Below are positions 36,872-52,389 of a DNA stretch of 64,000 nt, one piece after another. The notes below the pieces were generated by a model, which worked only from the letters and a program-made list of their open reading frames with translations, ran no database searches and was not told where the DNA came from. The translations under genes were made by a program, and so were the position numbers. This DNA is from an uncultured Bacteroidales bacterium. Its GTDB lineage: Bacteria; Bacteroidota; Bacteroidia; Bacteroidales; VadinHA17. The stretch lies in contig CAWJAW010000003.1 of the NCBI GenBank assembly GCA_963840965.1, positions 269,714 through 333,713 on the forward strand, written 5' to 3'. Each line of letters starts with the position of its first letter. The stretch's first letter is position 1.

Positions 36872-37672
36872 ATGAAAAAAGTAAATTTATCCTTTAACTG
36901 GCTGGTCTTAGCTGTAATTTTAGTCTTTTCGTTTTCTGCGACTTCATTCGCTGCCCCTCCGGAAAAACAGATGTTCTATGAACTTAAAATCTACCGTCTG
37001 ACCGATCCGGGAAAGAATGCCGTGTTCGACAGATATCTTAAAGATGCCTATATTCCTGCAATGCACAGGGCAGGTATCCCAACGGTAGGCGTCTTCAAAC
37101 CGATTGAAACGGATACTGCTTTCGGGAAAATGGTTTATGTATTCGTTCCTTATAAAACCATCGAACAGTTCGACCAGGTTTTTACAAAACTTGAAGGCGA
37201 TGCTGTTTACAAAGAGGCCGGAAAGGAGTTTCTTGATGCACCTTATAACGACCCGCCGTTCTCAAGGTATGAAAGTATATTAATGAAAGCCTTCGCATTT
37301 ATGCCGGAATTCAGACCGCCTTCATTTTCAACGCCAAAGTCGGAAAGAATTTATGAGCTCAGGAGCTATGGTAGCTGGACTGAGGAAAAAGCGACTAAGA
37401 AGATCCATATGTTCAATGAAGGCGGAGAAATGGCGGTGTTCGAAGAGGTAGGTTCAAAAGCTGCTTTCTACGGGCAGGTTGTTATAGGAAGCCAGAGGCC
37501 ACGTCTTATGTATATGACGACATATGAGAATATGCAGTCGCAGAAAGATCATTGGGCAGCCTTTTCAAAGCACCCGGCCTGGCAGGCTATGAGAGTGAAA
37601 GAGGAATATGCAAACACGGTAATCAAAGCTCTTCCATACCTTCTTCATCCGACTGACTATTCTGATTTTTAA
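36872..37672 (+). CDS. NIPSNAP family protein (two domains), secreted
   Basis: Two repeats start FYELKIYRL and IYELRSYGS. Has a signal peptide. Confidence 0.65.
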   Translation: MKKVNLSFNWLVLAVILVFSFSATSFAAPPEKQMFYELKIYRLTDPGKNAVFDRYLKDAYIPAMHRAGIPTVGVFKPIETDTAFGKMVYVFVPYKTIEQFDQVFTKLEGDAVYKEAGKEFLDAPYNDPPFSRYESILMKAFAFMPEFRPPSFSTPKSERIYELRSYGSWTEEKATKKIHMFNEGGEMAVFEEVGSKAAFYGQVVIGSQRPRLMYMTTYENMQSQKDHWAAFSKHPAWQAMRVKEEYANTVIKALPYLLHPTDYSDF

Positions 37673-37774: not shown

Positions 37775-39136
37775 TCAGTCAGGGAAATTGATCTTTGAGA
37801 GAGCCTGCTCAACCTCTTCATCGGTAAGTTCATGGTCGGGAAGGTTGTTTTCGTAGTATTTCTGATAAGCGGTAATATCAAAATGTCCGTGTCCGCTGAG
37901 GTTGAATAAAATTGTCCTGGGTGTGCCTTCAATATCAGCTTGACGGGCTTCATCAAGCGCTCCTGCGATGGCATATGAAGATTCAGGAGCGGGAAGGATA
38001 CCCTCGGTTTTCGCAAACAGAATGGCACCTTCAAAGCATTCCCTCTGCATTTTGGCCTTTGCCTCGACCAGACCGTCTTTTTTAAGCTGGCTTACCAGCA
38101 CTCCGGCACCATGATAACGTAATCCGCCGGCATGGATCTTTTCAGGGATGTAGTTGTGCCCCAGGGTGTACATGGGGAGCAGCGGAGTAAATCCGGCTGA
38201 GTCCCCGAAATCGTACATGAATTTACCCTTTGTCAGTTTCGGACACGATGAGGGTTCAATTGCGAGAAGACGCGTCTTTTTACCGTTTGTAAGGTTTTCC
38301 CTGAGGAACGGGAAAGCAATTCCGGAGAAGTTGGATCCGCCTCCGAAACAGCCTATAACAACATCGGGATAATCATCGGTTTTTGACATCTGGATCAACG
38401 CTTCCTGGCCGATAATGGTCTGATGCAGTATCACATGGTTCAGAACACTTCCAAGCGAATATTTTGTGTATGGATCCTGTACCGCTATCTCCATTGCTTC
38501 GGAAATGGCAATCCCAAGACTTCCCGGCGAATCAGGATACATTTCGAGTACCTTTCTTCCTGCTTCTGTCAGGTTACTTGGCGAAGGAACTACCTTGGCG
38601 TTGTAAGAATTCATCATGACCTTGCGGCCTGGTTTCTGGTCAAAACTTACCCTTACCATGAATACAAGGAGCTCAAGGCCGAAGTAGTTGCACGCATAGC
38701 TCATGGCGCATCCCCACTGACCGGCTCCTGTTTCCGTGGTGATCCTCTTGATGCCTTCTTTTTTATTATAATATGCCTGGGCAATCGCAGTGTTTGCCTT
38801 GTGTGAACCCGAATAGTTGCCCCCTTCGTATTTATAGTAGATCTTGCTCCTGGTACCCAGGGCCTTTTCCAGGTTATAAGCCCGAAAGACTGGAGAAGGG
38901 CGGTAAGTCTTGTAAAGATCCAGAACTTCATCAGGGATGTCAATGTACCTTTCGGTTGACACTTCCTGTTTGATAAGCTCCATAGGGAAAACAGCAGCCA
39001 GGGCATCGGGACCGATTGGCTGGCGGGTCTTCGGATCAAGCGGTGGCAATGGTTTGTTCGGCATGTCAGCCGCTATGTTGTACCATTGACGCGGCATTTC
39101 TTCATCGGTTAGCAGGATTCTCGAATTTTTTTTCAT
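37775..39136 (-). CDS. trpB2: TrpB2-type tryptophan synthase beta-like PLP enzyme
   Basis: 453 aa. It has the N-terminal extension and GSHKANT lysine motif, and GGGSNF, typical of the TrpB2 clade. No trpA or other trp genes are in the window. Confidence 0.8.
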   Translation of the reverse strand: MKKNSRILLTDEEMPRQWYNIAADMPNKPLPPLDPKTRQPIGPDALAAVFPMELIKQEVSTERYIDIPDEVLDLYKTYRPSPVFRAYNLEKALGTRSKIYYKYEGGNYSGSHKANTAIAQAYYNKKEGIKRITTETGAGQWGCAMSYACNYFGLELLVFMVRVSFDQKPGRKVMMNSYNAKVVPSPSNLTEAGRKVLEMYPDSPGSLGIAISEAMEIAVQDPYTKYSLGSVLNHVILHQTIIGQEALIQMSKTDDYPDVVIGCFGGGSNFSGIAFPFLRENLTNGKKTRLLAIEPSSCPKLTKGKFMYDFGDSAGFTPLLPMYTLGHNYIPEKIHAGGLRYHGAGVLVSQLKKDGLVEAKAKMQRECFEGAILFAKTEGILPAPESSYAIAGALDEARQADIEGTPRTILFNLSGHGHFDITAYQKYYENNLPDHELTDEEVEQALSKINFPD

Positions 39137-39170: not shown

Positions 39171-39207
39171 AAACAAAAAAGGCATGCTGTGAACAGCATG
39201 CCTTTTT
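39171..39207 (-). terminator. intrinsic terminator / candidate Trp attenuator
   Basis: Minus strand reads AAAAAGGCATGCTG-ttca-CAGCATGCCTTTTTTGTTTG. The T-run ends 34 nt before the trpB2 ATG. Confidence 0.7.
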
Positions 39208-39247
39208 GTTTATATCCTATGGATTATATAACGGCCTTATTCACAGC

Positions 39248-39298
39248 TTAATTATTCGAGCTGCGCCAGGACCAAATATATAATGCACTAATTTTCAT
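39248..39298 (-). CDS. putative Trp leader peptide MKISALYIWSWRSSNN
   Basis: Hand-translated 16-codon ORF with two TGG codons (W9, W11) followed by RSS. It lies between aroA and the hairpin and is below the ORF-track size cut-off. Confidence 0.6.
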   Translation of the reverse strand: MKISALYIWSWRSSNN

Positions 39299-39303
39299 GG
39301 CAT

Positions 39304-39311
39304 CAAAAATA
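39304..39311 (-). promoter_or_regulatory. TATTTTTG, a candidate Bacteroidota -7 box
   Basis: Matches TAnnTTTG. It lies only 5 nt upstream of the leader ATG, which would imply a near-leaderless transcript. Confidence 0.3.
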
Positions 39312-39488
39312 AACAATAATTTAATTCTGCAATAAAAATGCATATAAAAATTATGATTTGTTATTATTTACCCTCCCTGGCTTATTGATTGTCACAGTCA
39401 TGCAATGTTAAAATTATTATCGTTTCAGGTAAAGTTTTTATCGACTAAGGTATTGTGGCTTATTGTTTTACGATAAAAATTCGTATGA

Positions 39489-40739
39489 TTATTCATGTAT
39501 CACAGCTCCGGCTTTCCTGAGATCATCAAAGAATAAAGGATAGGATTTTCCCACACAATGCGAGTCCTTGATATGCACTGTTCCTGAGGCTCCCAGAGCC
39601 GCCACTGCGGCAGCCATTGCAATTCGATGGTCCTCATGCGATTCGACTCTTGCTCCCTTGACTTTGCCTCCCGTGACGACCAGACTGTCGTCAATGGCTT
39701 CTACCCTGATCCCCATTTTTTCAAATTCGCTGATGAGGGCGGCAGCTCTGTCGCTTTCCTTATGAATAAGCCTCGACGCTCCCCTTATAGTGGATACTCC
39801 CTTACAATACGCTGCCAGGGTTACAAGGGGGGGAAAGAGGTCAGGCGCTTCAGTGGCATCAAACTCAAATGCTCTCAGATCTGATTTTGATATTTCTACA
39901 GTATCGCCTGCTATTTTCATGACTGCCCAAGCATCCCGGAGGACATTTAACACAGCAGCATCGCTCTGATAACTGCCGGTCCGCAGACCAGTTACTTTAA
40001 TATTTCCATTTATGGCTCCGGCAATGAGCAGGAATGCACCTCCGCTCCAGTCGCTTTCTACCTCCCAGGTGCGGGCAACATATTTCTGCCGGCCTGGAAT
40101 CCTGAAAAGTTCGTAGTTTTCATTTGAAACCTCTATACCGAAGTCCCTCAGTACCTCAAGTGTCATATCGATATAGGGTTTGCTTCTGAGATTTCTTACC
40201 CTGACAAGTGAGTCTTTTTCTGCAACCGGCAGTGACATAAGCAGCCCGGTAAGCAACTGGGAGCTAATTGAGCCGTCAATATCACATTCTCCGCCCCTGA
40301 GCGGACCTCTGATTGTTAAGGGAAGCAGACCATCTGTGGTGGTACATTCCACTCCAAACTGTCTCAAAGCTTCCTCTATCATGGTCATCGGCCTTCTTTT
40401 TAGTGATCCGGCCCCTGTTACCGTTGTTTCAGCATCAAAAAGGGAGGCTACGGGAGAAAACAGTCTGATGGCCAGCCCCGATTCCCCGCAGTTAAGCTTC
40501 GTTTCCTTCAACTCTCTCGTTCCTGTAATCTTCATCGAGTCTGGTCCTGGTTCCACTCTCGAGCCAAGACTTACCGCGATACTCATTGCGGCAAGTGAAT
40601 CATCGCAGTATGAAGGATTAATAATGAGGCTTTCACCTTCTGCCAGAAGGGCAGCAGCAATTGCCCTCTGTGTCATACTTTTTGATGGCGGAGCTTTGAC
40701 TTCGCCTGTTAAAAAAGAGGGCTCTACGGATCTTTCCAT
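39489..40739 (-). CDS. aroA: 3-phosphoshikimate 1-carboxyvinyltransferase (EPSP synthase)
   Basis: 416 aa with PPSKSMTQRA, LNCGESGLAIR and HEDHRIAMA motifs. Confidence 0.9.
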   Translation of the reverse strand: MERSVEPSFLTGEVKAPPSKSMTQRAIAAALLAEGESLIINPSYCDDSLAAMSIAVSLGSRVEPGPDSMKITGTRELKETKLNCGESGLAIRLFSPVASLFDAETTVTGAGSLKRRPMTMIEEALRQFGVECTTTDGLLPLTIRGPLRGGECDIDGSISSQLLTGLLMSLPVAEKDSLVRVRNLRSKPYIDMTLEVLRDFGIEVSNENYELFRIPGRQKYVARTWEVESDWSGGAFLLIAGAINGNIKVTGLRTGSYQSDAAVLNVLRDAWAVMKIAGDTVEISKSDLRAFEFDATEAPDLFPPLVTLAAYCKGVSTIRGASRLIHKESDRAAALISEFEKMGIRVEAIDDSLVVTGGKVKGARVESHEDHRIAMAAAVAALGASGTVHIKDSHCVGKSYPLFFDDLRKAGAVIHE

Positions 40740-40753
40740 GAAAAAGAGGTTTC

Positions 40754-41869
40754 TTAGGTGTTTTCGGCCGGTGTTTCAATCCCGTTATTCATGATCCTCA
40801 TCTGATGGTTAATCGACTCCTGATGAATGGCTTTGAAGATGGTGTCGATCAATTCCCCGCTCAGTCCCTTGACCTGGCCGTGGATCACCACTTTACGGAT
40901 AATCTCATCCCAGCGCGTTGGCTGCAAGATAGTAATATTATTATCCTTTTTATACTGTCCGATGGTTTCAGCTACCTTCATTCTCTTTTCAAGGATATCA
41001 AGAAGAGCATCATCGAAAACGTCTATTTGCTGCCGGAGTTCACCCAGTATGTCGAGCAGCTTCGGATCGGAGGCAACAGGACTCCTCAGAATCAGTCTGC
41101 TGAGAAGCTCCTTAAGCTCGCTCGGGGTGACCTGCTGGGCAGCATCGCTGAGGGCATGTTCGGGATCAATATGAGACTCAAGCATCAAACCGTCAAAGTT
41201 CAGGTCCATTGCTTTCTGGGAAAGCTCGAAGAGAAACTCCCTTGATCCTGATATATGGCTTGGGTCACAAATGATCGGAAGATCCGGGATCCTTCGGCGA
41301 AGTTCGATGGGCAGCTGCCAGTTCGGCTGGTTCCTGTAAATTGTCTTTTCATATGTTGAAAATCCACGGTGGATGGCTCCGATTTTTGTGATCCCTGCCC
41401 TGGCAATTCTTTCAATGGCACCTATCCATAATTCAAGATCAGGATTGATTGGGTTCTTTATCAGCACCATCACGTCGACACCCTTCAATGCATCAGAGAT
41501 TTCCTGGACGGTGAAGGGATTTACCGAGGTCCGGGCCCCTATCCAGAGAAGATCGACGCCATATTTCAGTGCCTCATAAACATGCTTCTCATTTGCAACC
41601 TCCGTCCCTACCAATAGTCCGGTCTCCTGCTTCACATTTCTTAGCCACTTGAGACCTTCCGAACCGACCCCTTCAAAAGAGTTTGGACGGGTTCTGGGTT
41701 TCCATATTCCCGCACGGAACACGCTCACTTCAGGTAAAAGTGCTAGCTCGGCTGCAGTTGCCATAACCTGTTCCTCGCTTTCTGCGCTGCAGGGACCAGA
41801 GATCAGGAAAGGTCTTCCCTTATAACCTCTCCATTCATTTGCCAGAAATCTTTTCAGTTCAAGTACCAT
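40754..41869 (-). CDS. bifunctional DAHP synthase (class I-beta) / chorismate mutase type II
   Basis: N-terminal ISGPCSAESEEQ...FRAGIWKPRT (AroA(G)/KdsA-like). The C-terminal ~90 aa form a helical chorismate mutase domain (LRQQIDVFDDALLDILEKRM). Confidence 0.85.
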   Translation of the reverse strand: MVLELKRFLANEWRGYKGRPFLISGPCSAESEEQVMATAAELALLPEVSVFRAGIWKPRTRPNSFEGVGSEGLKWLRNVKQETGLLVGTEVANEKHVYEALKYGVDLLWIGARTSVNPFTVQEISDALKGVDVMVLIKNPINPDLELWIGAIERIARAGITKIGAIHRGFSTYEKTIYRNQPNWQLPIELRRRIPDLPIICDPSHISGSREFLFELSQKAMDLNFDGLMLESHIDPEHALSDAAQQVTPSELKELLSRLILRSPVASDPKLLDILGELRQQIDVFDDALLDILEKRMKVAETIGQYKKDNNITILQPTRWDEIIRKVVIHGQVKGLSGELIDTIFKAIHQESINHQMRIMNNGIETPAENT

Positions 41870-41880
41870 GATATCGTGTA

Positions 41881-42726
41881 TTAATGTAATATTCTCTTAA
41901 TCTTATTTGCCTCTTCCATTAGTCCTTTAAGACCTTCTTTGTCATTTTCGGCTATCAGTTTCCGGAACAGGTTCATCTTTTCTATATAATTGTCTATGAC
42001 CGCGATTACTGACCTGGAATTCTCGAGAAAGATAGGAGCCCACGTTTCGGCATTGCTTTTTGCAAGTCTGACGGTGCTGTCAAAACCTCCGCTGGCCAGG
42101 GTTGTTATGTTCTTCTCTTCTTTTTCCTTGTCGAGTACACTCAGGGCAAGAGAGAAAGATGTTATGTGGGAGATGTGTGAGACATAGGCAACATGGACGT
42201 CATGATCGCGTGAGTTCATATTGACCTTGTTCATGTTCAGGACATCGAGCATCTTTTCGGCCAGATCGAGGGCATCCTTATCGCTGAGTTCGCTGTCGCA
42301 GATAATGGCATTCTTGTAATCGAAAAGCTTTCCTATGGCTGCAAGCGGTCCCGAAAATTCGGTTCCGGCCATTGGATGAAGAGCTACATAACGGCCTCTG
42401 CCGGGATGATCCCTGACCACTCTGCCTATCTTGCCCTTTGTCGACCCCATGTCGGTAACCACTTTTGAGGTCCCATTTATCCTGTCAAGTACTCCCGGAA
42501 GCATCTTCCAGATGGTGTCGACAGGGGTGCTTATTATTATCAGGTCACTCCTGTCAACTGCATTTTCGAGTGAATCGGTTTCATCTACTAATCCGCACAA
42601 CTGAGCTATGTTCCTGTGCTGGACATTTGATTCAACACCTATTATCCTGTCTGCAAAGCCTCTTTTCCTGAGGTCAATCATCAGCGAACCCCCTATGAGC
42701 CCGATTCCTACTATTGCTATTGTCAT
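41881..42726 (-). CDS. tyrA: prephenate dehydrogenase
   Basis: N-terminal Rossmann motif IVGIGLIGGS, HPMAG motif, 281 aa. Confidence 0.85.
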   Translation of the reverse strand: MTIAIVGIGLIGGSLMIDLRKRGFADRIIGVESNVQHRNIAQLCGLVDETDSLENAVDRSDLIIISTPVDTIWKMLPGVLDRINGTSKVVTDMGSTKGKIGRVVRDHPGRGRYVALHPMAGTEFSGPLAAIGKLFDYKNAIICDSELSDKDALDLAEKMLDVLNMNKVNMNSRDHDVHVAYVSHISHITSFSLALSVLDKEKEEKNITTLASGGFDSTVRLAKSNAETWAPIFLENSRSVIAVIDNYIEKMNLFRKLIAENDKEGLKGLMEEANKIKRILH

Positions 42727-42830: not shown

Positions 42831-43994
42831 TTACAATTTCAACTTTTCTATTCTTTTCCTTGCTTCCAGCAGTCTTTTATTGTCAGCACACAAGGATATG
42901 CGTACATATCTTTCACCCCTGCTTCCAAAAATGAAACCGGGAGTGAGGAAGACATGCGCTTTCTGAAGTATATCCTCTACAAAAGATTCTGCGCCGGGCT
43001 TGGTTTCAGGTATACGGCCCCAGAGAAAGAGACCTGTCTGGTCAGAGCTGAATCTGCAATCCAGCTGCTCCATTATCGACTCGGCAGTCAGGCGCCTTTC
43101 CCTGTATGTAAGGTTGACCGTGTCGTACCATGATTCGGGATTGTGAAGGGCTTCTGCTGCTGCCAGCTGCATCGGGAGGAACATCCCCGAATCCATGTTG
43201 CTCTTTACCTTAAGAATCGTTTTTATGTATTCACTGTTACCGGCAACCATGCCAATTCTCCAGCCGGCCATATTGTGCGACTTGCTGAGGGAATTCAGTT
43301 CCAGCGCTGTTTCCATTGCTCCTTTTACTGAAAGAAGGCTGATGTATTCGTTGTTGAGTATAAAGCTGTACGGATTGTCGTTTATCAGAAGGATGTTACG
43401 CTCGAGGGCAAAAGAGACGAGTCTTTCGAAAAGACCTACTGATCCCTTTGCTCCGGTCGGCATATTCGGGTAGTTGGTCCACATGAGTTTTACCCTGCTC
43501 AGATCTTCTTTTTCAAGAGAGCCCATGTCGGGCTGCCAGCCCTTGCTTTCGTCGAGCGGATAGGTCCTGATCTTGCCACCCACCAAACTGGTAACCGAAG
43601 AATAGGTAGGGTATCCGGGATCGGGAATAAGCACCTCGTCGCCCGGGTTGACAAAAGCCATGCTTATGTGCATTATTCCTTCCTTGCTTCCCATGAGCGG
43701 GAGTATTTCCGAGACAGGATCAAGACTCACCCCGAAATATTTGTTGTACCATTCAGCGAAGGCTTTTCTCAGCACAGGACTTCCGCTGTAGCTCTGGTAT
43801 CCGTGCACATTTGATAAGCGTGCCTCTTCAGAGAGTCTTGCCACGGTATTTTCCGACGGTGGCTGGTCGGGACTTCCGATCCCCAGGTTGATAACATCAG
43901 CACCGGCAGTTCGCATCTCGTCGATCTGCCTCAGTTTCCTCGAAAAATAATACTCCTGGACGGTGTTGGTCCGTTCTGCCGGTTTAACTTTCAT
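42831..43994 (-). CDS. class I/II PLP-dependent aminotransferase (aromatic/prephenate aminotransferase candidate)
   Basis: SLSKSHNMAGWRIG lysine motif. The start was moved to MKVKPAERTN, overlapping the pheA stop by 11 nt. Confidence 0.75.
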   Translation of the reverse strand: MKVKPAERTNTVQEYYFSRKLRQIDEMRTAGADVINLGIGSPDQPPSENTVARLSEEARLSNVHGYQSYSGSPVLRKAFAEWYNKYFGVSLDPVSEILPLMGSKEGIMHISMAFVNPGDEVLIPDPGYPTYSSVTSLVGGKIRTYPLDESKGWQPDMGSLEKEDLSRVKLMWTNYPNMPTGAKGSVGLFERLVSFALERNILLINDNPYSFILNNEYISLLSVKGAMETALELNSLSKSHNMAGWRIGMVAGNSEYIKTILKVKSNMDSGMFLPMQLAAAEALHNPESWYDTVNLTYRERRLTAESIMEQLDCRFSSDQTGLFLWGRIPETKPGAESFVEDILQKAHVFLTPGFIFGSRGERYVRISLCADNKRLLEARKRIEKLKL

Positions 43995-44814
43995 ATAGCA
44001 TTTCTCCTTTGTTGTAAATTCCAAGTACTTCCAGATTGCTGGTATATTTCTCCAGGGTTGTAACTATAGCATCTGTTTCTGAATCAGCGGGCAGTTCGAG
44101 ATCGAGGTAGAACATATATTCCCAGTCACCGTTCAGTCGTGGTACCGACTGGATCTTTGACAGGTTGATGTTCATGTCCGCCAGTTTTACCAGGACCGAT
44201 GCAAGCGATCCGGGTTTGTGACCGGTTGCAAAGCAGATTGATACCTTGTTTCCCCTTGTGCTTCCCTTGTCTTCGCTGCCGATAACCAGGAACCTTGTGT
44301 AATTCTTCTTGAAAGTCTCGATTCCTTCGGCAATTATATCCAGTCCGTAAATTTCCGCTGCATTTCTGGATGCAATTGCCGCTATCTTTTTCAGCCGGTT
44401 TTCTGCAATTATCCTTGCGCTTGAAGCTGTGTCGTCTGTTTCAACCAGGGTTATTTCGGGGTATTGGTTCAGAAAGGTCATGCACTGGGCCAGGGCAATA
44501 GGGTGAGACCTGATCTGCCGGATATCCTTTATTGACTGTCCGGGGAGAGCCATCAGGTTCTGAATGATCCTCAGGTTGTGTTCGCCCAGGATCTTGAGTC
44601 CCGATTCTCTTATCAGGCTGTAGTTATAGAGGAGGCTTCCCGACCTGGCATTTTCGATTGCCATCATTGCAAGGTCTGCTCTTCTTTCCTTTACGGAATT
44701 AAGGGTCATGTCAAAAGAGGAGCACGGAACGATTTCAACTTCCTTACTGCTGAAATACTGCCTGGCGGCAACTTCATGGAAACATCCCGTTTCTCCCTGG
44801 ATAGCAATCTTCAT
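43984..44814 (-). CDS. pheA: prephenate dehydratase (PDT plus ACT domains)
   Basis: Starts MKIAIQGETGCFHE and has a C-terminal ACT domain (GSLASVL). The track ORF adds 47 codons from a TTG that reads through the upstream hairpin, so I trimmed it. Confidence 0.85.
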   Translation of the reverse strand: MKIAIQGETGCFHEVAARQYFSSKEVEIVPCSSFDMTLNSVKERRADLAMMAIENARSGSLLYNYSLIRESGLKILGEHNLRIIQNLMALPGQSIKDIRQIRSHPIALAQCMTFLNQYPEITLVETDDTASSARIIAENRLKKIAAIASRNAAEIYGLDIIAEGIETFKKNYTRFLVIGSEDKGSTRGNKVSICFATGHKPGSLASVLVKLADMNINLSKIQSVPRLNGDWEYMFYLDLELPADSETDAIVTTLEKYTSNLEVLGIYNKGEMLYES

Positions 44815-44835
44815 ATTAAATCTTTTTAAAACAGG

Positions 44836-44858
44836 AAGGGTCCCTTGTGGGGACCCTT
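44836..44858 (-). terminator. hairpin upstream of pheA (candidate attenuator terminator or initiation-region structure)
   Basis: Minus strand reads AAGGGTCCC-cacaa-GGGACCCTT then CCTGTTTTAAAAAG. The stem is 9 bp, the U-run is only 4 nt, and it ends 21 nt before the pheA ATG. Confidence 0.45.
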
Positions 44859-44896
44859 GCTTGCATATGTTGTTTTTTATGTATACAAAAATCCCC

Positions 44897-44962
44897 TTAT
44901 CTCTTTTTAAAATAAAAAAAGAAGTAAAAATAAGAGGTGATATAATTGTATACAATATTCAT
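44897..44962 (-). CDS. putative Phe/Tyr leader peptide MNIVYNYITSYFYFFFYFKKR
   Basis: Hand-translated 21-codon ORF with 5 Phe and 5 Tyr codons. Residues 11-18 are YFYFFFYF. The stop lies 38 nt before the hairpin. Confidence 0.6.
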   Translation of the reverse strand: MNIVYNYITSYFYFFFYFKKR

Positions 44963-45089: not shown

Positions 45090-45254
45090 AAGGCCGAAGA
45101 CCGAAGACGGAAGAAGTTATGCCAGTTTTGCCAGTTCTGCGGGTTCTGCCGGTCGTTTATCATCACGGATGGTAGCTGAAAGCTCTGCGCCCTGTGCTCT
45201 GCGCCCTGTGCTCTGCGCCCTGAGCCCTGAGCCCTGAGCCTTGCGCCTTGCGCC
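45089..45254. repeat. composite short-tandem-repeat block in the his operon 3-prime region
   Basis: In order: (GAAGRCC-type heptamer)x4, (TGCCRGTTY nonamer)x4, (CTCTGCGCCCTGTG 14-mer)x2.5, (GCCCTGA)x3, (GCCTTGC)x2. The block runs up to the hisIE stop codon. Confidence 0.85.
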
Positions 45255-45851
45255 TTATTTCCCCTTATGCCGTTCTCTCAGTACTTCTTCAACATCTTCA
45301 AAAGCAACATTCTTCTTTTTCAGAAGAATAAGAAAATGGTATAACAGATCCGCCGCTTCATTTTTGAACAGGTCGATATTGTCATCCTTGGCTTCAATGA
45401 CCAGTTCCACTGCTTCTTCACCCACTTTCTGAGCTACTTTGTTTATTCCCTTTTTGAAGAGTTTGTTAGTGTAGGAACCTTCTGCATTGCCATCAATTCG
45501 TTTACTGATTATATCTTCAAGGTGGTAGACAAAGCCTTTTGAAACCTCCTCACCAAAGCACGAAAGACGTCCGGTGTGACAGACAGGTCCTGCCGGATCG
45601 ACCATGACAAGCAGGGCGTCATTGTCGCAGTCTGTTGTTATTTCTTTAACAGTAAGGAAGTTGCCAGATGTCTCCCCCTTGGTCCATAACCGGTTTTTAC
45701 TGCGGCTGAAGAAAGTGACCTTACCTTCCCTGACGGTCTGATCATAAGCCTCTTCATTCATGTAACCGACCATAAGTACCTGTAGCGAATTGTTGTCCTG
45801 GATTATTGCCGGAACAAGTCCGTCCCCTTTTTTGAAGTCAATGTTTATCAT
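45255..45851 (-). CDS. hisIE: bifunctional phosphoribosyl-AMP cyclohydrolase / phosphoribosyl-ATP diphosphatase
   Basis: HisI motifs (CDNDALL, GPVCHTG) followed by a HisE helical domain. Confidence 0.9.
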   Translation of the reverse strand: MINIDFKKGDGLVPAIIQDNNSLQVLMVGYMNEEAYDQTVREGKVTFFSRSKNRLWTKGETSGNFLTVKEITTDCDNDALLVMVDPAGPVCHTGRLSCFGEEVSKGFVYHLEDIISKRIDGNAEGSYTNKLFKKGINKVAQKVGEEAVELVIEAKDDNIDLFKNEAADLLYHFLILLKKKNVAFEDVEEVLRERHKGK

Positions 45852-45924
45852 ATGATTTATTCTAATGCTGTTCTTTTCATTTCAATTCCCGATCTGCATC
45901 TGGCTGAGTACAGTCACCCGGGAT

Positions 45925-46680
45925 TCAGCGTCTTACATTTATTCCTTTGCCGGAAAGGTACTCCTTCAGTTCGGGTATTGGTATTTCCCCGTAGTGAAAG
46001 ATGCTTGCAGCCAAAGCTGCGCTGCAGGTTGTTTTGACAAACACTTCCCTGAAATGTTCCATGGTACCTGCTCCGCCCGAAGCAATAACCGGAATGTTGA
46101 CACTCTTGCTTACCTCCCTTGTCACTTCTATCGAGAATCCGGCTTTTGTGCCGTCGGCATTCATGGATGTGAGAAGTATTTCCCCTGCACCCTGTCTTTC
46201 AGCCCATTTTGCCCAATCAACTGCTCTTAGCGGGGTGGGAGTGTTACCGGCATCAATGTAAACCATCCAGTCACTGCCGGTGAACCTGGTGTCAATTGCC
46301 ACCACCACGCACTGGCTTCCAAACCTTCTGGCAATATCTGTTATCAGACCCGGATTCTTGAAAGCAGAGGTGTTTATGCTGACCTTATCAGCACCGGCGC
46401 TTATGAGCAGGGCAGCATCATCGATGGTTGATATGCCTCCGCCGACTGTGAAGGGCAGGTTGATTTCAGCGGCTATCTTCCCGACAAGTTCAGAAAAGGT
46501 TTTTCTTTTCTCGATTGTTGCAGTGATATCGAGGAACACAAGTTCATCGGCACGCTGTTCCACATATTTCTTTGCGAGTTCCACAGGATCGCCGGCATCG
46601 CGGATATCCACGAAATTAACACCCTTGACGGTGCGTCCTTCCTTTATGTCGAGACACGGTATTATTCTTTTCTTCAGCAT
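45925..46680 (-). CDS. hisF: imidazole glycerol phosphate synthase cyclase subunit
   Basis: [17 protein letters not shown] and ASGGAG motifs. Confidence 0.9.
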
Positions 46681-47387
46681 AAGCGGGCAATATCTTTAAG
46701 GTCAAGAATTCCTTCGTAAAGCGCTTTGCCTACAATGGCTCCCTCACAGCCGATAGCAGACAGTGTTTCGAGGTCACCGACGGAGCTTATTCCACCGCTG
46801 GCAATCAGGTTCAGTCCAGGTATTCCGAGAATCTCGCGGTAAAGGTCGGTCGATGGTCCCTGCAACATGCCATCCTTCTCGATATCAGTGCAGATTGCAT
46901 ATTTGAATCCCCTTTCCCTGTACCATGTTATGAAACCAATGATATCCGAACCGGAATTCTCAGTCCAGCCTTCTGTGGCAACATTCCGGTTAACCGAATC
47001 AGCTCCGAGGATTATTTTGTCTTCTCCCCATTCCATTAGCCATTCAAGTACCAGCGGCCTGTTGGTCACCGATATGCTTCCGCATGTGACCTGGCTTGCA
47101 CCTGCGCTGAAAGCATTCTCCAGATCGTCAGAAGAACGGATGCCTCCGCCGAAGTCTATTTTCAGGGAGGTTGCCGATGCTATCTTTTCAAGGATCCCAA
47201 GGTTGGTAATGCGCTTGTTCCGGGCTCCGTCGAGGTCGACCAGGTGGATGTATTCAATACCATGATCCCCGACCTGGCGGGCCACTTCAAGCGGATCGCT
47301 GCTGTATACCTTTTTTGTCGAGAAATCTCCCTTTGAAAGCCTTACACATTTGCCACCCATAATATCCAGAGCTACTATAATTCTCAT
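46674..47387 (-). CDS. hisA: ProFAR isomerase
   Basis: [16 protein letters not shown]...VDLDGA...SGGIS, 237 aa. Confidence 0.9.
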
Positions 47388-47962
47388 AGTTCAAGGAAAT
47401 TTCTTAGTATCCTTTCCCCGGTATCCGCCGATTTCTCGGGGTGGAACTGGACGGCATAAAAATTATCCCTGTGCATTGCAGCGCTGAAGGGCAGAACGTA
47501 GTCGCAGATAGCAAGGGTGTAATCCGAAATCTCAGCATAGTAACTGTGGACATAATATACATCTTCATCGGCAGTAATGTTCCTGAACATGGTACCTTTC
47601 AGCGCCGAGAAATTGTTCCAGCCCATATGAGGCACTTTGTCGAAAGGTGGAAACTTCTTTACCGCTGCGTCAAAGATTCCAAGGCATTTTACAGATCCTT
47701 CATCCGAATAGTGGCACATCAGATGGAGTCCCAGGCATATTCCAAGAACCGGCTGCCTGAGAGACAGAATGAGTTTATCGAGTTCTCTCTCTGCAAGGTA
47801 CTTCATAGCACTTCGCGCCTGACCCACACCGGGAATGATGACCTTTTCGGCGGCAAGAAGTTCCTCCGTATCGTCGGTCACAATTGAATCATATCCCAGG
47901 TGCCTCAGTGCGTTTTGAACCGACTTTATGTTCCCGGCATTGTATTTAAGAAGAGCTATCAT
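47384..47962 (-). CDS. hisH: imidazole glycerol phosphate synthase glutamine amidotransferase subunit
   Basis: GICLG nucleophile elbow and FHPEKS motif. Confidence 0.9.
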   Translation of the reverse strand: MIALLKYNAGNIKSVQNALRHLGYDSIVTDDTEELLAAEKVIIPGVGQARSAMKYLAERELDKLILSLRQPVLGICLGLHLMCHYSDEGSVKCLGIFDAAVKKFPPFDKVPHMGWNNFSALKGTMFRNITADEDVYYVHSYYAEISDYTLAICDYVLPFSAAMHRDNFYAVQFHPEKSADTGERILRNFLEL

Positions 47963-49047
47963 AGGGTTCCCTTGGTTGATGGCAGAACAAAGCTTCCTGT
48001 TTTTCTGACCGCAGACTTCACTGCCCTGGCAAATGATTTGAATACAGCCTCCACCTTGTGATGATCATTATCACCGCTTGCATGGATGTTCAGGTTGCAC
48101 TTTGCGCTGTCGCTGAATGACTTGAAGAAGTGAAAGAACATTTCTGAAGGTACGCCGCCCACTGCCGGACCTGTAAGGGGAACATCCCAGCTGAACCAGG
48201 GGCGTCCTCCGAAATCAATGGCTGTCTGGGCAAGCGAGTCGTCCATTGGGAGTAGAAAACCGTATCTTTCAATACCTTTCTTGCTTCCAAGAGCCGACAG
48301 GATTCCTTCCCCCAAACAAATTGCGATATCTTCTATGGTATGGTGCTGGTCAACGTTAAGGTCTCCCTTAGCCCTCAACGTAATATCGAAGCCTCCGTGC
48401 CTGGGTATCTGCTCAAGCATGTGATCGAAAAAGCCTATGCCGGTATTGATATTGCATTTCCCCGAACCGTCAAGATTAATCTGAAGTTCGATCGATGTCT
48501 CCTTCGTTAAGCGGGTGACTATTGCAAGCCGGGGCCGGGATTTCAGAAAATTATAGATATCATTCCAGTCGGTTGTATTGTAAAGGGCAAGCGGATCGGG
48601 GTCCTCGTTGAAATATATTGCTCCGCACCCAAGGTTCTGTGACAGCTGCAGATCGGTGATCCTGTCACCTATGACAAAGGACGATGCCAGATCAATTCCC
48701 TGAGCCAGATAACGTGTCAGCATTGCTGTTCCGGGTTTTCTGGTGGGGGCTTTATCTTCGGGCCAGGTACAGTCGATGAATACTTCTGCAAAGACTACAC
48801 CTTCATCCCTTAGTATCTGAAGCATCTTGTTGTGGGAGGGCCAGAACATCTCTTCCGGAAAGGCTTCTGTTCCAAGTCCATCCTGGTTTGTAACCATAAC
48901 AAGTTCGTAGTCTGTCTCCTTCACAATCTTTGACAGGGAGGAGATTGCCCCGGGGATAAACCTGAAATCCTCCAGGCTGTCAGCAAGCCCGTTGGCAGGC
49001 TCCGCCAGTATGGTACTATCCCTGTCAATAAACAATGTTTTCTTCAT
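47959..49047 (-). CDS. hisB: bifunctional histidinol-phosphatase / imidazoleglycerol-phosphate dehydratase
   Basis: HAD N-domain (LFIDRDSTI) plus IGPD motifs (DQHHTIED, GDNDHHKVEA). The start was moved to MKKTLFIDRD at 49047, which overlaps the hisC stop (ATGA). Confidence 0.9.
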   Translation of the reverse strand: MKKTLFIDRDSTILAEPANGLADSLEDFRFIPGAISSLSKIVKETDYELVMVTNQDGLGTEAFPEEMFWPSHNKMLQILRDEGVVFAEVFIDCTWPEDKAPTRKPGTAMLTRYLAQGIDLASSFVIGDRITDLQLSQNLGCGAIYFNEDPDPLALYNTTDWNDIYNFLKSRPRLAIVTRLTKETSIELQINLDGSGKCNINTGIGFFDHMLEQIPRHGGFDITLRAKGDLNVDQHHTIEDIAICLGEGILSALGSKKGIERYGFLLPMDDSLAQTAIDFGGRPWFSWDVPLTGPAVGGVPSEMFFHFFKSFSDSAKCNLNIHASGDNDHHKVEAVFKSFARAVKSAVRKTGSFVLPSTKGTL

Positions 49048-50081
49048 ACGTTGATTTTTCTCAGGGCACTCAGAAGCCTGTCGTTTTCTTTTTTTGTGCC
49101 CACGGTTATCCTGATGCATCCCGGAATTATACGATTCCTGTTCCTGACAATTATGTTTCTGTTTATCAGTTCCGAATAAACCTTGTCGGCGTTACCTGTC
49201 CTGACAAGAAGGAAATTGGAATCGGAAGGAAACACCTTTTCAATGATAGTGATTTTTTCAAGAGCATGAGCGAGCCGTTCCCTTTCTTTTAGAATAAGCC
49301 TGATCCTTGTATTTACCAGTTCAAAGCGTGAAAGGCATTTCACTGCAGCAACCTGATTTATGGTGCTGATATTGTATGGCGGCTTTATCTTATTGAAATA
49401 TCCAACCAGTGCAGGGTTCATGAACGCCATGCCGATCCTGGCTGCCGCCATTCCCATGGCCTTGCTGAATGTCTGCATCACTATCAGGTTCAGCCGGGTT
49501 TCTATCATGCCTTTGAATGACTCCTTCTCCGAAAAATCGCCGTAAGCCTCATCAATCAGGACTATCCCTCTGAAATTCCGTATTATCATTTCGATATCCT
49601 CAGCTCTCATTGAATTTCCTGTCGGATTGTTGGGTGAGCATATGATTACCAGCTTTAGAGACGGATCCTTAAGAGCCTCCATGGTTTTTCCGGTATCGAT
49701 CTGGAAATCATTGTTAAGAGGAACCTTAACCAATCTTACATCATTTATTGCAGCAGTCACCTCGTACATTCCGTACGTGGGAGAGAAGGTCATCGCGCTG
49801 TCGGACCCCGGTTTGCAGAAAATTCTGAAGCACAGATCAATTATTTCATCACTGCCGTTCCCGAGAAAAATTGAATTCTCAGGCACGTTCTTTATCATGC
49901 TTATACCTTCCTTCAGCTTTTTCTGGTAAGGGTCGGGATACCTGTTGAGGCTTCCGAAGGGATTCTCATTTGCATCGAGAAAGGTTCCGTTACTCCCCGT
50001 GAATTCATTTCTGGCGCAGGAATAGGGGGTGAGGGACTTCACATTTTCCCTTACAAGTTTATCGATATCAATCATTTTCAA
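49044..50081 (-). CDS. hisC: histidinol-phosphate aminotransferase
   Basis: Class II aminotransferase with QTFSKAMGMAAARIG. Confidence 0.9.
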   Translation of the reverse strand: MKMIDIDKLVRENVKSLTPYSCARNEFTGSNGTFLDANENPFGSLNRYPDPYQKKLKEGISMIKNVPENSIFLGNGSDEIIDLCFRIFCKPGSDSAMTFSPTYGMYEVTAAINDVRLVKVPLNNDFQIDTGKTMEALKDPSLKLVIICSPNNPTGNSMRAEDIEMIIRNFRGIVLIDEAYGDFSEKESFKGMIETRLNLIVMQTFSKAMGMAAARIGMAFMNPALVGYFNKIKPPYNISTINQVAAVKCLSRFELVNTRIRLILKERERLAHALEKITIIEKVFPSDSNFLLVRTGNADKVYSELINRNIIVRNRNRIIPGCIRITVGTKKENDRLLSALRKINV

Positions 50082-51357
50082 GAGATTTTAGTCTTATTGT
50101 CACTGCATTGGCATGTCCCTTTAGCTGTTCAGCTTCTGCCATCTTTTCAATCACCGGTCCCAGATTCCGGATACCTTCCTGATCGATTTTCTGGAATGTT
50201 ATTTTTTTCACAAACGATTCGGCCGATACTCCGCCATAGCTTCTTGCAAATCCTGCTGTAGGCAATGTGTGATTAGTGCCTGATGCATAATCACCAGCAC
50301 TCTCGCAGCTGTATTTTCCAAGGAACACCGAACCGGCAGAAGTGACCTTTCCGGCAAGTCTGTCAGGATCAGAGGTAGATATTATAAGGTGCTCGGGGGC
50401 ATAAAGATTGCTGAACTCAATGCATTCATCAGTCGAACTGAAAAGAATTGACAGGCTGTTTTCAAGGGCTCTGAGGGCAATATCCTTTCTTGGAAGGAGC
50501 ATCGCCTGCCTTTGGGTTTCGGCCAGTACCTTTTCAGTGATTCCTTCCGAATCGGTCAGAAGTATTACCTGGCTGTCGGTTCCGTGCTCTGCCTGCGAAA
50601 GGAGATCCGAGGCAACAAAGGAAGGATCAGAATCGCTATCCGCGATGATGAGCACTTCACTTGGACCGGCAGGAATATCTATTGCCGTACCCTCAAGCTG
50701 AAGCAAAGCTTTTGCCATGGTTACATATTGGTTGCCAGGACCAAATATCTTATCGACTTTTAGAATTGTTTCTGTTCCTAAGGCCATGGCTGCGATTGCC
50801 TGGGCTCCTCCAGCCCTGTAGATCTGAGTCACGCCTGCCATCTTTGCAGAGTATAATATAAGGGGATTGATATTGCCGTTCCTGTCGGGGGGAGTACACA
50901 GTATGATCTCGGGGCATCCTGCAATGCGGGCGGGGACAGCAAGCATCAGTACCGTTGAAAAGAGCGGTGCTGTTCCTCCGGGGATGTATAATCCGACACG
51001 GTCGATTGGTACACTCTTTCTCCAGCACCTCACCCCCCTGGTTGTCTCAGTTACCGGTTCTTCACGTAGTTGGACCGAATGGAACCTGGTGATATTTTCC
51101 AGGGCGACAGCTATAGCCTCTTTAAGTTCCTCTGTCACAAGGCTGGCTGAGGCTTCAATCTCGGATTCCGGAACTTTCAGGTCCCTTGGTCTGACACCGT
51201 CGAATTTCTCAGCCAGATCACTTAGGGCCCTGTCTCCATCTTCCCTGACATTCTTAATTATTTCAGCCACTTGGTTCCGGAGTTCATGCCTGTTGATCTC
51301 CGGCCGCCGGCATAGTTCCTGCCACCGGCTTCTTTCGGGGAATGAAATCACCTGCAT
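50068..51357 (-). CDS. hisD: histidinol dehydrogenase
   Basis: 429 aa with the SQAEHG motif. Confidence 0.9.
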   Translation of the reverse strand: MQVISFPERSRWQELCRRPEINRHELRNQVAEIIKNVREDGDRALSDLAEKFDGVRPRDLKVPESEIEASASLVTEELKEAIAVALENITRFHSVQLREEPVTETTRGVRCWRKSVPIDRVGLYIPGGTAPLFSTVLMLAVPARIAGCPEIILCTPPDRNGNINPLILYSAKMAGVTQIYRAGGAQAIAAMALGTETILKVDKIFGPGNQYVTMAKALLQLEGTAIDIPAGPSEVLIIADSDSDPSFVASDLLSQAEHGTDSQVILLTDSEGITEKVLAETQRQAMLLPRKDIALRALENSLSILFSSTDECIEFSNLYAPEHLIISTSDPDRLAGKVTSAGSVFLGKYSCESAGDYASGTNHTLPTAGFARSYGGVSAESFVKKITFQKIDQEGIRNLGPVIEKMAEAEQLKGHANAVTIRLKSLEND

Positions 51358-52214
51358 TACAAAATCATTTTTTCGATTGGTATTACAAGTATTCCCTGTG
51401 CACCCGCAATCCTTAACTGATCAATCCTTTCCCAGAATTCATCCTCCTTGACTACGGAGTGGATGCTGCACCAGCCCTTTTCCTCGAGGGGAAGGATGGT
51501 GGGGCTTTTCATGCCCGGAAGTATCTTGCAGATCTCATGCAATGATTCCAGCGGTGCATTCAGAAGAATGTACTTGTTTTCCCTGGCGTTTCTTACTGAC
51601 CTGATCCTGAACAACAGTTTCTCGAGGATATTCTTTTTATCCTGATCAAGGTTTCTGTTTGCTATTATAACTGCCTGACTTTTCAGAAGGACTTCCACCT
51701 CCTTAAGTCCGTTAGTCATAAGGGTGCTTCCGGAGCTTACAATGTCGCAGACGGCTTCGGCCAAACCTATCCCCGGTGCAATTTCAACGCTTCCGCTGAT
51801 CTCTTCAGTAGTTGCCGTCAGATTATTCTCCGCCAGGTAAAGGTTAAGAAGCCTGGGATAGCTGGTTGCCACCTTTTTATTCATGAACCATCCCGGACCT
51901 GTGTACGATTCCTCTTTCGGGATTGCAAGGCTCAATCGGCATTGCGCAAATCCCAGCTGCTCAAGAATTTCCACGTCCCTGTTTTTTTCAAACACTATGT
52001 TTTCGCCGAGGATGCCTATGTCGGCAACCTGTTGTTCGACATACTGGGGGATGTCGTCATCCCGGAGAAACAGAATATCGACAGGGAAGTTTGAAGCACT
52101 TGTCTTGAGGACATCGGTGCCGTTTGAGAATTTGATTCCGCATTCCTGCAGCAGTTTGTGAGAGTTTTCACTAAGCCTTCCCTTTTTCTGGATGGCAATT
52201 TTCAGCCTGTTCAT
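51357..52214 (-). CDS. hisG: ATP phosphoribosyltransferase, long form
   Basis: 285 aa with LKIAIQKKGRL and DIVSSGSTL motifs and a C-terminal regulatory domain. Confidence 0.9.
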   Translation of the reverse strand: MNRLKIAIQKKGRLSENSHKLLQECGIKFSNGTDVLKTSASNFPVDILFLRDDDIPQYVEQQVADIGILGENIVFEKNRDVEILEQLGFAQCRLSLAIPKEESYTGPGWFMNKKVATSYPRLLNLYLAENNLTATTEEISGSVEIAPGIGLAEAVCDIVSSGSTLMTNGLKEVEVLLKSQAVIIANRNLDQDKKNILEKLLFRIRSVRNARENKYILLNAPLESLHEICKILPGMKSPTILPLEEKGWCSIHSVVKEDEFWERIDQLRIAGAQGILVIPIEKMIL

Positions 52215-52247: not shown

Positions 52248-52285
52248 GAAAAATAAAAACCCGTCTGATATGCTCAGACGGGTTA
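52248..52285 (-). terminator. intrinsic terminator / candidate His attenuator
   Basis: Minus strand reads AACCCGTCTGA-gcata-TCAGACGGGTTTTTATTTTT. It ends 35 nt before the hisG ATG. Confidence 0.7.
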
Positions 52286-52313
52286 TGATATTTTGATACT
52301 ATTACATATCACT

Positions 52314-52370
52314 TTCATTTCGCCTGAGTGCAGGAGAAAAAATGGTGATGATGTAATTTAATTGATGTCA
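52314..52370 (-). CDS. putative His leader peptide MTSIKLHHHHFFSCTQAK
   Basis: Hand-translated 18-codon ORF with four consecutive His codons (CAT CAT CAC CAT). Its stop lies 28 nt before the terminator stem. Confidence 0.65.
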
Positions 52371-52389
52371 TTTGTTTATAATCTGAAGG

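Follow-up and report, generated by a model that had tools for sequence, protein, structure and literature searches.

The leader region upstream of trpB2

The DNA analyzed here is a 64-kb stretch of contig CAWJAW010000003.1 from an uncultured Bacteroidales bacterium, which is called the window in the following, and the subject is a short region on its minus strand directly in front of a stand-alone gene of the trpB2 type. This region harbors a small open reading frame (ORF) with two tryptophan (Trp) codons followed by a terminator-like hairpin, and it probably acts as a Trp-sensing transcription attenuator. The gene trpB2 (37775 to 39136, minus strand) encodes a TrpB-like pyridoxal phosphate (PLP) enzyme of 453 amino acids, which passes the TrpB2 profiles NF009057 (701.3 bits, cut-off 366) and TIGR01415 (625.8 bits, cut-off 518.85), while it reached just 138.7 bits on the canonical trpB profile TIGR00263 with its cut-off of 392. 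Among solved structures, 6hul_B (437 bits) is the nearest match, and the SHK motif with the PLP lysine is retained. Hence, the TrpB2-type identity that a first-pass annotation had assigned from the sequence is borne out by these profile scores. The next gene past trpB2, a member of the NIPSNAP family (36872 to 37672, plus strand), is convergent and trpB2 is therefore regarded as monocistronic. Moreover, no TrpA-like or TrpB1-like ORF was detected in the window or in about 280 related loci when these neighborhoods were probed with E. coli TrpA and TrpB sequences. At the scale of the window and the approximately 280 loci, the designation of trpB2 as a lone or stand-alone gene is correct.

The leader ORF is situated at 39298 to 39248 on the minus strand. 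It comprises 16 codons, from the ATG at 39298-39296 to the TAA at 39250-39248, and would be translated into the peptide MKISALYIWSWRSSNN. The codons ATG AAA ATT AGT GCA TTA TAT ATT precede the first TGG, TCC stands between the two Trp codons, and CGC AGC TCG AAT AAT TAA follow the second one. The two UGG codons are codons 9 and 11 and occupy 39274-39272 and 39268-39266. Both UGG codons lie within the 5' arm of a hairpin, named P1, whose 5' arm (region 1, 39283 to 39260) also includes CGCAGC (39265-39260). The 3' arm of P1 (region 2, 39247 to 39224) is composed of GCUGUGAA (39247-39240), GGCC (39236-39233) and UUAUAUAA, such that UUAUAUAUUUGGUCCUGGCGCAGC at 39283-39260 pairs with GCUGUGAAUAAGGCCGUUAUAUAA at 39247-39224. 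Region 2 begins directly after the leader stop codon, hence a ribosome positioned at the stop codon would cover region 2.

The putative intrinsic terminator, i.e., the attenuator (39207 to 39171, minus strand), starts 40 nt after the leader stop codon. Its hairpin AAAAAGGCAUGCUG-UUCA-CAGCAUGCCUUUUU (39207 to 39176) is formed by 14 pairs (39207-39194 with 39189-39176) and a loop of 4 nt (39193-39190), and it is followed by a U-run ending at 39171, which leaves 34 nt to the trpB2 ATG at 39136. A simple terminator scan marked this hairpin on the plus strand only, where A/U pairs were counted as part of the stem; if the stem is restricted to GGCAUGCUG/CAGCAUGCC, the tail on the minus strand reads UUUUUUGUUUG. 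The complete 191-nt leader folds with -51 kcal/mol compared to -34.4 +/- 4.0 kcal/mol for shuffled sequences (z = -4.1), and none of 200 shuffles reached its stability. The first-pass annotation had described the 16-codon ORF with two TGG codons exactly to the base, and its placement of the hairpin with the U-run about 40 nt behind the ORF and 34 nt before trpB2 agrees with the coordinates given here.

Upstream of the leader ORF a candidate promoter of the Bacteroidetes sigma-A type was found. Its -7 box TATTTTTG (TAnnTTTG) is located at 39311 to 39304 on the minus strand, 5 nt before the leader ATG, and a possible -33-like TTG, for which the evidence is weak, at 39332 to 39330. Transcription starts mapped in Flavobacterium psychrophilum have the -7 box at positions -12 to -5 (PMC9723704), and with the same geometry the leader would be transcribed from 1 nt before its AUG. 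The leader ORF is thus probably nearly leaderless. At the other end of the region, the spacer that separates the terminator from trpB2 contains the semi-conserved sequence TAACCAC (39159 to 39153, minus strand); TAAYC occurs approximately 19-23 nt 5' of the trpB2 ATG in 34 of 61 loci, and no convincing pairing partner or role was found for this spacer motif.

Conservation of the leader and its RNA structures

The conservation of this arrangement was analyzed with a TrpB2 protein search considering one genome per species, which yielded 592 relatives. The best 80 were kept; they belong mostly to Bacteroidales metagenome-assembled genomes (MAGs) and show 78-94% identity. The unit of leader ORF and hairpin is found 150-172 nt 5' of trpB2 in 60 of these 80 related loci, and 61 leader sequences were aligned. 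This alignment of orthologous intergenic regions had been suggested as a check of the first prediction, and its outcome is favorable: the 61 leaders retain the ORF with its two UGG codons together with the hairpin, at a fixed distance to trpB2. The start codon is kept in all of them (59 ATG and 2 GTG), Trp is encoded at codons 9 and 11 in 61/61 sequences, and not a single indel is found from the start codon to the end of region 1 (alignment columns 34-74), while codons 3-5 are freely variable. The -7 box is conserved to at least 90% at TA..TTT, and its distance to the start codon is exactly 5 nt in 50 of 61 leaders. In 39 of 58 leaders, a TTG or TTTG occurs 15-22 nt 5' of the box, which is weak evidence for a -33 element. 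The energy of the leader fold relative to shuffled sequences together with the retention of the whole arrangement in 60 related loci indicate that it is more than chance.

The leader unit is linked to trpB2 and not to the gene in front of it. In most loci, the upstream neighbor is aroA; nevertheless, seven different arrangements occur upstream, including a divergent one, and the leader is kept with trpB2 in all of them. The leader is preceded by a leuB-like gene and pheA in two loci (L021 and L050), by tyrA and the gene for 3-deoxy-D-arabino-heptulosonate-7-phosphate (DAHP) synthase in two others (L033 and L039), directly by hisA-hisF-hisIE in L055, by other genes in L071, and by a divergently transcribed gene in L031. 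Since it accompanies trpB2 through these changes of the upstream gene, the unit belongs to trpB2. Species-representative genomes were also scanned with a DNA pattern that covered just regions 1 and 2, and at least 119 matches were obtained. Among the matches listed, 110 are situated directly before trpB2, 3 are cut by the end of the locus, and the other 6 fall inside unrelated coding sequences, compared to roughly 7 matches estimated to occur by chance; none of those listed precedes a gene other than trpB2. Collectively, the leader is conserved in more than 100 species-level Bacteroidales genomes.

Three of the loci carry deposited names from other phyla. L048 and L113 (CAVTMS010000010.1) are Bacteroidales-type trpB2 loci deposited as 'Candidatus Bathyarchaeota archaeon', and L067 (OMJU01000111.1) is a Bacteroidota-type trpB2 locus deposited as 'Candidatus Rokubacteria', whose closest TrpB2 relatives are from Bacteroidota. 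Mis-binning or contamination of public MAGs is the likely reason for these labels.

The RNA structure is conserved to a similar extent. Across the 61 sequences, P1 and the terminator are 91% paired and 14 pairs show double changes, whereas none of 500 shuffles matched this value and slid controls were only 25-50% paired. For example, the P1 pair of columns 62 and 96 is C-G with the middle codon UCC and G-C with UGG. The terminator contains 12 conserved pairs, with a change from C-G to U-A at 144-158 (7 sequences) and from G-C to A-U at 145-157 (11 sequences). The length of the leader peptide depends on where the stop codon is placed: it is 14-16 residues for stops in the loop of P1, which is also the situation in the window, and mostly 24 residues where the stop is the TAA within the conserved UUAUAUAA, with a full range of 14-24. 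Codon 10 co-varies with its partner strand in P1 and can specify Ser, Trp, Arg, Leu, Cys, Pro or Phe. Codon 12 is CGC, UGC or CAC (Arg, Cys or His), whereby the P1 pairing is kept and the amino acid is altered, and codon 13 is AGC or AGU, matched by changes on the opposite P1 strand. The constraint on the codons after the Trp codons thus acts on the RNA and not on the protein. The second UGG is invariant though it is unpaired in P1, and a coding role is the best explanation for this behavior. The sequence features, their conservation and covariation and the folding energetics can be regarded as established.

An attenuator also requires a competing structure, and the first-pass annotation could not recognize an antiterminator by eye. 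One exists, however, not at the place where the E. coli model puts it. In the trp operon of E. coli, the antiterminator takes the 5' arm of the terminator. A corresponding 2:3 antiterminator was looked for and rejected here, because the conserved complementarity between region 2 and the 5' arm is limited to UGUG:CACG (4 bp) and GCC:GGC (3 bp). Instead, GCUGUGAA at 39247 to 39240 is the exact complement of UUCACAGC at 39193 to 39186 (both minus strand), which consists of the terminator loop UUCA and CAGC, the first four bases of the 3' arm, and the two could form a proposed antiterminator of 8 bp. In the 61 sequences, this helix (columns 85-92 with 150-157) is 96.9% paired compared to 23-50% in slid controls. 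Compensatory changes were found at three of the eight pairs. One pair changes from G-C to A-U (5 sequences), and two change from A-U to U-A (2 and 7 sequences, respectively); the latter two are independent of the terminator stem, because they lie in the loop. The terminator loop hence co-varies with region 2, as in the combinations GUGAU/AUCAC and GUGUA/UACAC. In an unbiased scan of all column pairs, the antiterminator ranked as the second-longest conserved complementarity behind the terminator. Furthermore, in the independent set from the pattern scan, for which only region 2 had been fixed, all eight pairs are possible in 67 of 97 leaders and seven of eight in another 27, and the terminator loop is UUCA in 68 and AUCA in 20 of these 97 leaders. 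RNAalifold applied to the whole alignment returned the P1 core and the terminator only and no alternative helix.

Masked folding, in which the first part of the leader was blocked as by a ribosome stalled on the second UGG, placed the antiterminator in the minimum-energy fold of all 61 leaders when the transcript ended at column 157, of 59 when it ended at column 160, and of 22 when it ended at column 162. The terminator prevailed only after its entire 3' arm had emerged. When the ribosome mask was set at the stop codon of the window leader, where it covers GCUGUGAA, the terminator formed. A helper contact between GCC (39235 to 39233, minus strand) and GGC (39202-39200) at the base of the terminator 5' arm is 95-100% paired and is also present in the ribosome-masked minimum-energy folds. 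Taken together, alignment and modeling support a conserved alternative helix that would exclude the terminator and that has an atypical loop/3'-arm geometry. To our knowledge, an antiterminator of terminator loop and 3' arm has not been described for amino-acid attenuators.

Proposed attenuation at trpB2 and its alternatives

The leader most probably represents a ribosome-mediated, Trp-sensing transcription attenuator that is dedicated to the stand-alone gene trpB2, a view in which the transcription start, the translation of the ORF, the ribosome stalling and the response to Trp are all predicted. Transcription would begin at the leader's own promoter (-7 box at 39311-39304), about 1 nt before the leader AUG, and the ribosome would encounter both UGG codons (codons 9 and 11 of the 16-codon ORF) inside the P1 5' arm. 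If charged tRNA-Trp is plentiful, the ribosome should reach the stop codon at 39250-39248 and cover GCUGUGAA of region 2, and if the leader is not translated at all, P1 would sequester region 2. In both situations the terminator at 39207-39171 could form and transcription would end 34 nt before trpB2. If tRNA-Trp is scarce, the ribosome is expected to stall on the UGG codons, thereby covering region 1 and freeing region 2. The free region 2 may then capture UUCACAGC (39193-39186), i.e., the terminator loop and the top of its 3' arm, assisted by the GCC:GGC contact at the base of the 5' arm, so that the terminator would be unable to close and RNA polymerase would read into trpB2. Most likely, the cell makes TrpB2 only when tryptophan is short. 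Both an ORF with conserved start, frame and UGG codons and a predicted intrinsic terminator between this ORF and trpB2 are present, as in other members of the attenuator class. The proposal of the first-pass annotation that a Trp-codon leader and a terminator control trpB2 is supported by the comparative conservation, the linkage to trpB2 and the covarying candidate antiterminator.

Several points weigh against this interpretation. All leader sequences come from MAGs. We infer the transcription start of the leader from the -7 box only, and leaderless mRNAs are rare in Bacteroidetes, with 3.7-5.5% of the transcripts. The best-supported antiterminator has only 8 bp, and its partner in the loop and 3' arm emerges after the 5' arm of the terminator. 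In 58 of 61 leaders, folding at full length favors the terminator; since the terminator is more stable once it is complete, the antiterminator must win kinetically. The GCC:GGC contact is near-invariant and hence has no support from covariation, and the A/U-rich inner helix beside it is only 50-80% paired in a part where the alignment is unreliable. The terminator scan showed no terminator-like site from the aroA stop codon (39489) to the leader, and transcripts reading through from the aro operon probably also reach the hairpin. Finally, two related loci, L018 (~2940-3001) and L049 (~2914-3001), are without promoter, ORF and P1, while the hairpin and trpB2 are intact and the aroA stop codon lies just before the conserved hairpin. 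These loci imply that the hairpin can also terminate aroA and that trpB2 is expressible in another way. They can be regarded as natural leader-deletion variants.

Among the alternatives, the one that survives best keeps the Trp attenuator and differs in the switch, i.e., another antiterminator is used, either region 1 with the terminator 5' arm or GCC:GGC with the A/U helix, or the disruption of P1 alone is sufficient. In its favor, other complementarities are conserved, UGGCG (columns 64-68) with CGCUG (144-149) being 80-100% paired and UGUG (87-90) with CACG (142-145), as an alternative antiterminator, 100% paired, and the proposed 8-bp helix is weaker than the full-length terminator. These alternative helices are, however, only 4-5 bp long and lack independent covariation, region 1 would be under the ribosome in the stalled state, and the loop positions co-vary with region 2, which is hard to explain unless they are paired. 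Hence, a different switch within a Trp attenuator appears rather improbable.

It might also be considered that the hairpin is a plain terminator of the aro operon (pheA to aroA), that the small ORF is incidental and that trpB2 has its own, unrecognized promoter. No other terminator exists between aroA and the hairpin, the hairpin is flanked on both sides by runs of A and U, and in L018 and L049 it directly follows aroA without any leader. Nevertheless, this explanation seems very unlikely, because 61 leaders retain the ORF with its two UGG codons, P1 and the -7 box, because the unit stands before trpB2 even without aroA and in L031 behind a divergent gene, and because the spacer between terminator and trpB2 (14-40 nt across the loci) holds no conserved -7 box TAnnTTTG. 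A function of the hairpin solely as aroA terminator was rejected on the basis of the synteny. A promoter between hairpin and trpB2 was likewise rejected: no box is conserved there and the window has only TAtTTTG, which is one base short. The earlier statement that the short distance leaves no room for a separate promoter is not proof; the observation is that the spacer has no conserved box. L018 and L049 keep the hairpin and trpB2 without the leader.

Another explanation assumes that not the supply of tRNA-Trp but free tryptophan is sensed by the nascent peptide (..YIWSWRSS) in the exit tunnel, similar to TnaC. The segment L/I-Y-I/N-W-x-W-R-S indeed looks conserved as a peptide, but its conservation tracks the base pairing at codons 10 and 12, and the peptide length varies from 14 to 24 residues. 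Moreover, the terminator is intrinsic and not of the Rho type, and a biosynthetic or salvage gene is expected to be switched on without Trp and not with an excess of it. A TnaC-like arrest peptide was rejected on account of the codon-versus-pairing pattern, and we attach hardly any probability to sensing of free tryptophan. Equally improbable is that the main function of the terminated leader transcript (about 125 nt) is that of a small RNA in trans, or that control occurs at translation and not at transcription, because, even if attenuated leader transcripts can accumulate and several weak, terminator-driven matches to Rfam small RNAs exist, these matches are far below the thresholds, the invariant features are in-frame codons with a conserved start, and the element is strictly cis-linked to trpB2.

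Coming back to Trp-sensing attenuation of trpB2, one further-reaching picture can be drawn only tentatively. It is possible that a large clade of uncultured anaerobic Bacteroidales induces TrpB2 under Trp starvation for indole salvage, with a near-leaderless ORF and capture of the terminator loop and 3' arm, perhaps without having a full trp operon.

Related leaders, the role of TrpB2 and the gene neighborhood

Elements of this kind have precedents, as Trp leader peptides have been predicted in Bacteroidetes since 2010 (RF01692). The Bacteroid-trp leader of Weinberg et al. 2010 (PMC2864571; Rfam RF01692) apparently controls trpB and trpE, contains at least two UGG codons and 'a loosely conserved hairpin', and no antiterminator was proposed for it. 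The window leader shares with RF01692 the short ORF, the presence of at least two UGG codons inside a hairpin, the subsequent start of the terminator with AAAAGGC..., the Bacteroidetes host and the position upstream of a tryptophan gene, which is trpB2 here and trpB or trpE in the published cases. An RF01692 seed sequence upstream of trpE has UGGCAAUGGCGCAGU, like the window leader, and several seed sequences from other genera display a TAnnTTTG box 5-7 nt before the AUG, as found here. The window leader aligns over its full length to the RF01692 model, but with 29.9 bits (E 0.18) versus a gathering threshold of 49; the best relative tested at that sensitivity (L041) reached 34.7 bits, which is also sub-threshold. 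At the threshold of 49 bits, RF01692 was found in none of 39 related trpB2 loci and not in the window, and a scan of the whole window with Rfam models gave nothing at threshold. Unlike RF01692 as published, the present leaders occur before stand-alone trpB2 only, have W-x-W fixed at codons 9/11 and display a defined alternative helix. Judged by these sequence characters, the window element is a previously undescribed, trpB2-specific sub-family of the predicted Bacteroidetes Trp leaders.

Likeness to trpL of E. coli (RF00513) is found in the logic of 1:2 pairing, antiterminator and terminator, in the Trp codons followed by CGC and a Ser/Thr codon, and in the stop codon just before region 2. Differences concern the phylum, the promoter type, the antiterminator with loop and 3' arm, and the regulated gene, which is a lone trpB2 instead of trpEDCBA. 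The RF00513 Trp_leader model gave no match in the window at E <= 10, whereas three relatives with WWW leaders (~2858-2963) pass its threshold of 41, namely L041 with 44.3, L053 with 43.3 and L024 with 42.5 bits. The scores of these WWW relatives recall the resemblance to TrpL pointed out in the first-pass annotation, but the window itself does not match the model. The likeness may reflect homology or convergence alike. L024, L041 and L053 are Bacteroidales leaders that pass the proteobacterial model and fail the Bacteroidetes model RF01692.

The actinobacterial trp attenuators, whose leader peptides contain two or three UGG codons (Seliverstov et al. 2005, PMC1262725), also resemble the window element in having a UGG leader peptide, a GC-rich terminator and conserved triple complementarities of antiterminator and terminator. 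They differ in phylum and sequence and precede whole operons (PMC1262725); the 'trpB2A' mentioned there is a second operon copy, which is not shown in that paper to be of the TrpB2 type. Regarding Bacteroidetes, transcriptome papers on Bacteroides thetaiotaomicron and F. psychrophilum mention likely leader-peptide attenuation and do not dissect it (PMC9723704 for F. psychrophilum). In the literature, no paper was found that links trpB2, also under the name trpEb_2, to attenuation in Bacteroidetes.

Trp leaders in front of trpB2 are not restricted to the close relatives. A second search starting from the divergent locus L067 retrieved more distant trpB2 genes, and in many of these loci a short ORF with WW, WWW or WxW and a terminator occur 150-220 nt 5' of stand-alone trpB2. 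The leader peptide contains ..QAWWWRS.. in Alistipes (L239, L242, L245 and L272), MNRYWWRLL.. in Prevotellaceae (L237) and ..TYWWWH.. in Dysgonomonas (L231), and Trp-codon leader ORFs were also found in Rikenellaceae (L234), Ignavibacteria (L216, L218 and L223), Caldithrix (L277) and two other loci (L219 and L229). Moheibacter is also among the genera with a Trp-codon leader ORF before stand-alone trpB2. The simple hairpin scan recognized terminators in 3 of the distant leaders, and a scan allowing G-U pairs recognized one in each of the leaders that were folded. None of the distant leaders is detected at the thresholds of RF01692 or other Rfam models. In masked folding, L067, L237 and L231 exhibited the design with loop and 3'-arm antiterminator in different letters; in L237, UCGUGAGA pairs with UCUCACGA. 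Consequently, this geometry is not the quirk of one lineage. A classical 5'-arm antiterminator was obtained for the Alistipes type, L229 and L277. The distant leaders have the same layout of Trp ORF and terminator as the window but different sequences, and a predicted control of stand-alone trpB2 by Trp codons is widespread among Bacteroidota and neighboring groups. TTAACC/TTAATC, similar to the spacer motif TAACCAC, is also found in the distant loci L216, L218, L219, L229 and L067.

TrpB2 enzymes are widespread, and their role is debated between indole salvage, the use of serine or phosphoserine, and that of a backup synthase. A switch that reads the tRNA-Trp supply and controls trpB2 alone would provide direct evidence from regulation that, for the cell, TrpB2 is a tryptophan source. 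Such a role fits to the TrpB2 of B. thetaiotaomicron, which rescues an E. coli trpA mutant via cross-fed indole (bioRxiv 10.1101/2024.05.08.593210). For Thermococcus, Hiyama et al. 2014, as cited in PMC11085991, are reported to assign TrpB2 to biosynthesis and indole salvage. A canonical trp operon elsewhere in these genomes would matter for whether TrpB2 salvages indole in an auxotroph or acts as a supplementary synthase. The class of mechanism is textbook knowledge, hence the value of the trpB2 leader lies in the TrpB2 question and in a clean and compact model for leader-peptide attenuation in Bacteroidetes, where it has so far only been predicted. Ribosomes of Bacteroidetes do not use Shine-Dalgarno pairing. 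Since the current Rfam models miss the trpB2 leaders, a dedicated model would improve annotation.

In the window, a cluster of genes for aromatic amino acids lies 5' of the leader on the strand of trpB2. On the minus strand, the his operon is followed by pheA, an aminotransferase gene, tyrA, the gene for DAHP synthase/chorismate mutase, aroA, the Trp leader and trpB2. The gene just upstream of the leader is aroA (39489-40739), preceded by the DAHP synthase/chorismate mutase gene (40754-41869), the prephenate dehydrogenase gene tyrA (41881-42726), the aminotransferase gene (42831-44024) and the prephenate dehydratase gene pheA (43984-44955). The hisGDCBHAF-IE operon, which was confirmed with Pfam, is located 5' of the pheA cluster at 45255-52214. 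Between the his operon and pheA, GC-rich short tandem-like repeats cgcaaggcgcaaggctcagggctcagggctcagggcgcagagcacagggcgcagagcacagggcgcagagc occur at approximately 45190-45255 on the minus strand, in contrast to the AT-rich intergenic DNA elsewhere in the window.

A second attenuator of the leader-peptide type, in this case for His, is likely present before hisG at 52251-52371 on the minus strand, where the Rfam scan gave no match at threshold. Its small ORF MTSIKLHHHHFFSCTQAK (52371-52315, minus strand) carries four consecutive His codons. The corresponding hairpin AACCCGUCUGA-gcaua-UCAGACGGGUU (52284-52258) with its U-run is situated about 35 nt 5' of the hisG ATG at 52214, and a -7 box TATATTTG lies about 21 nt 5' of the His leader ORF.

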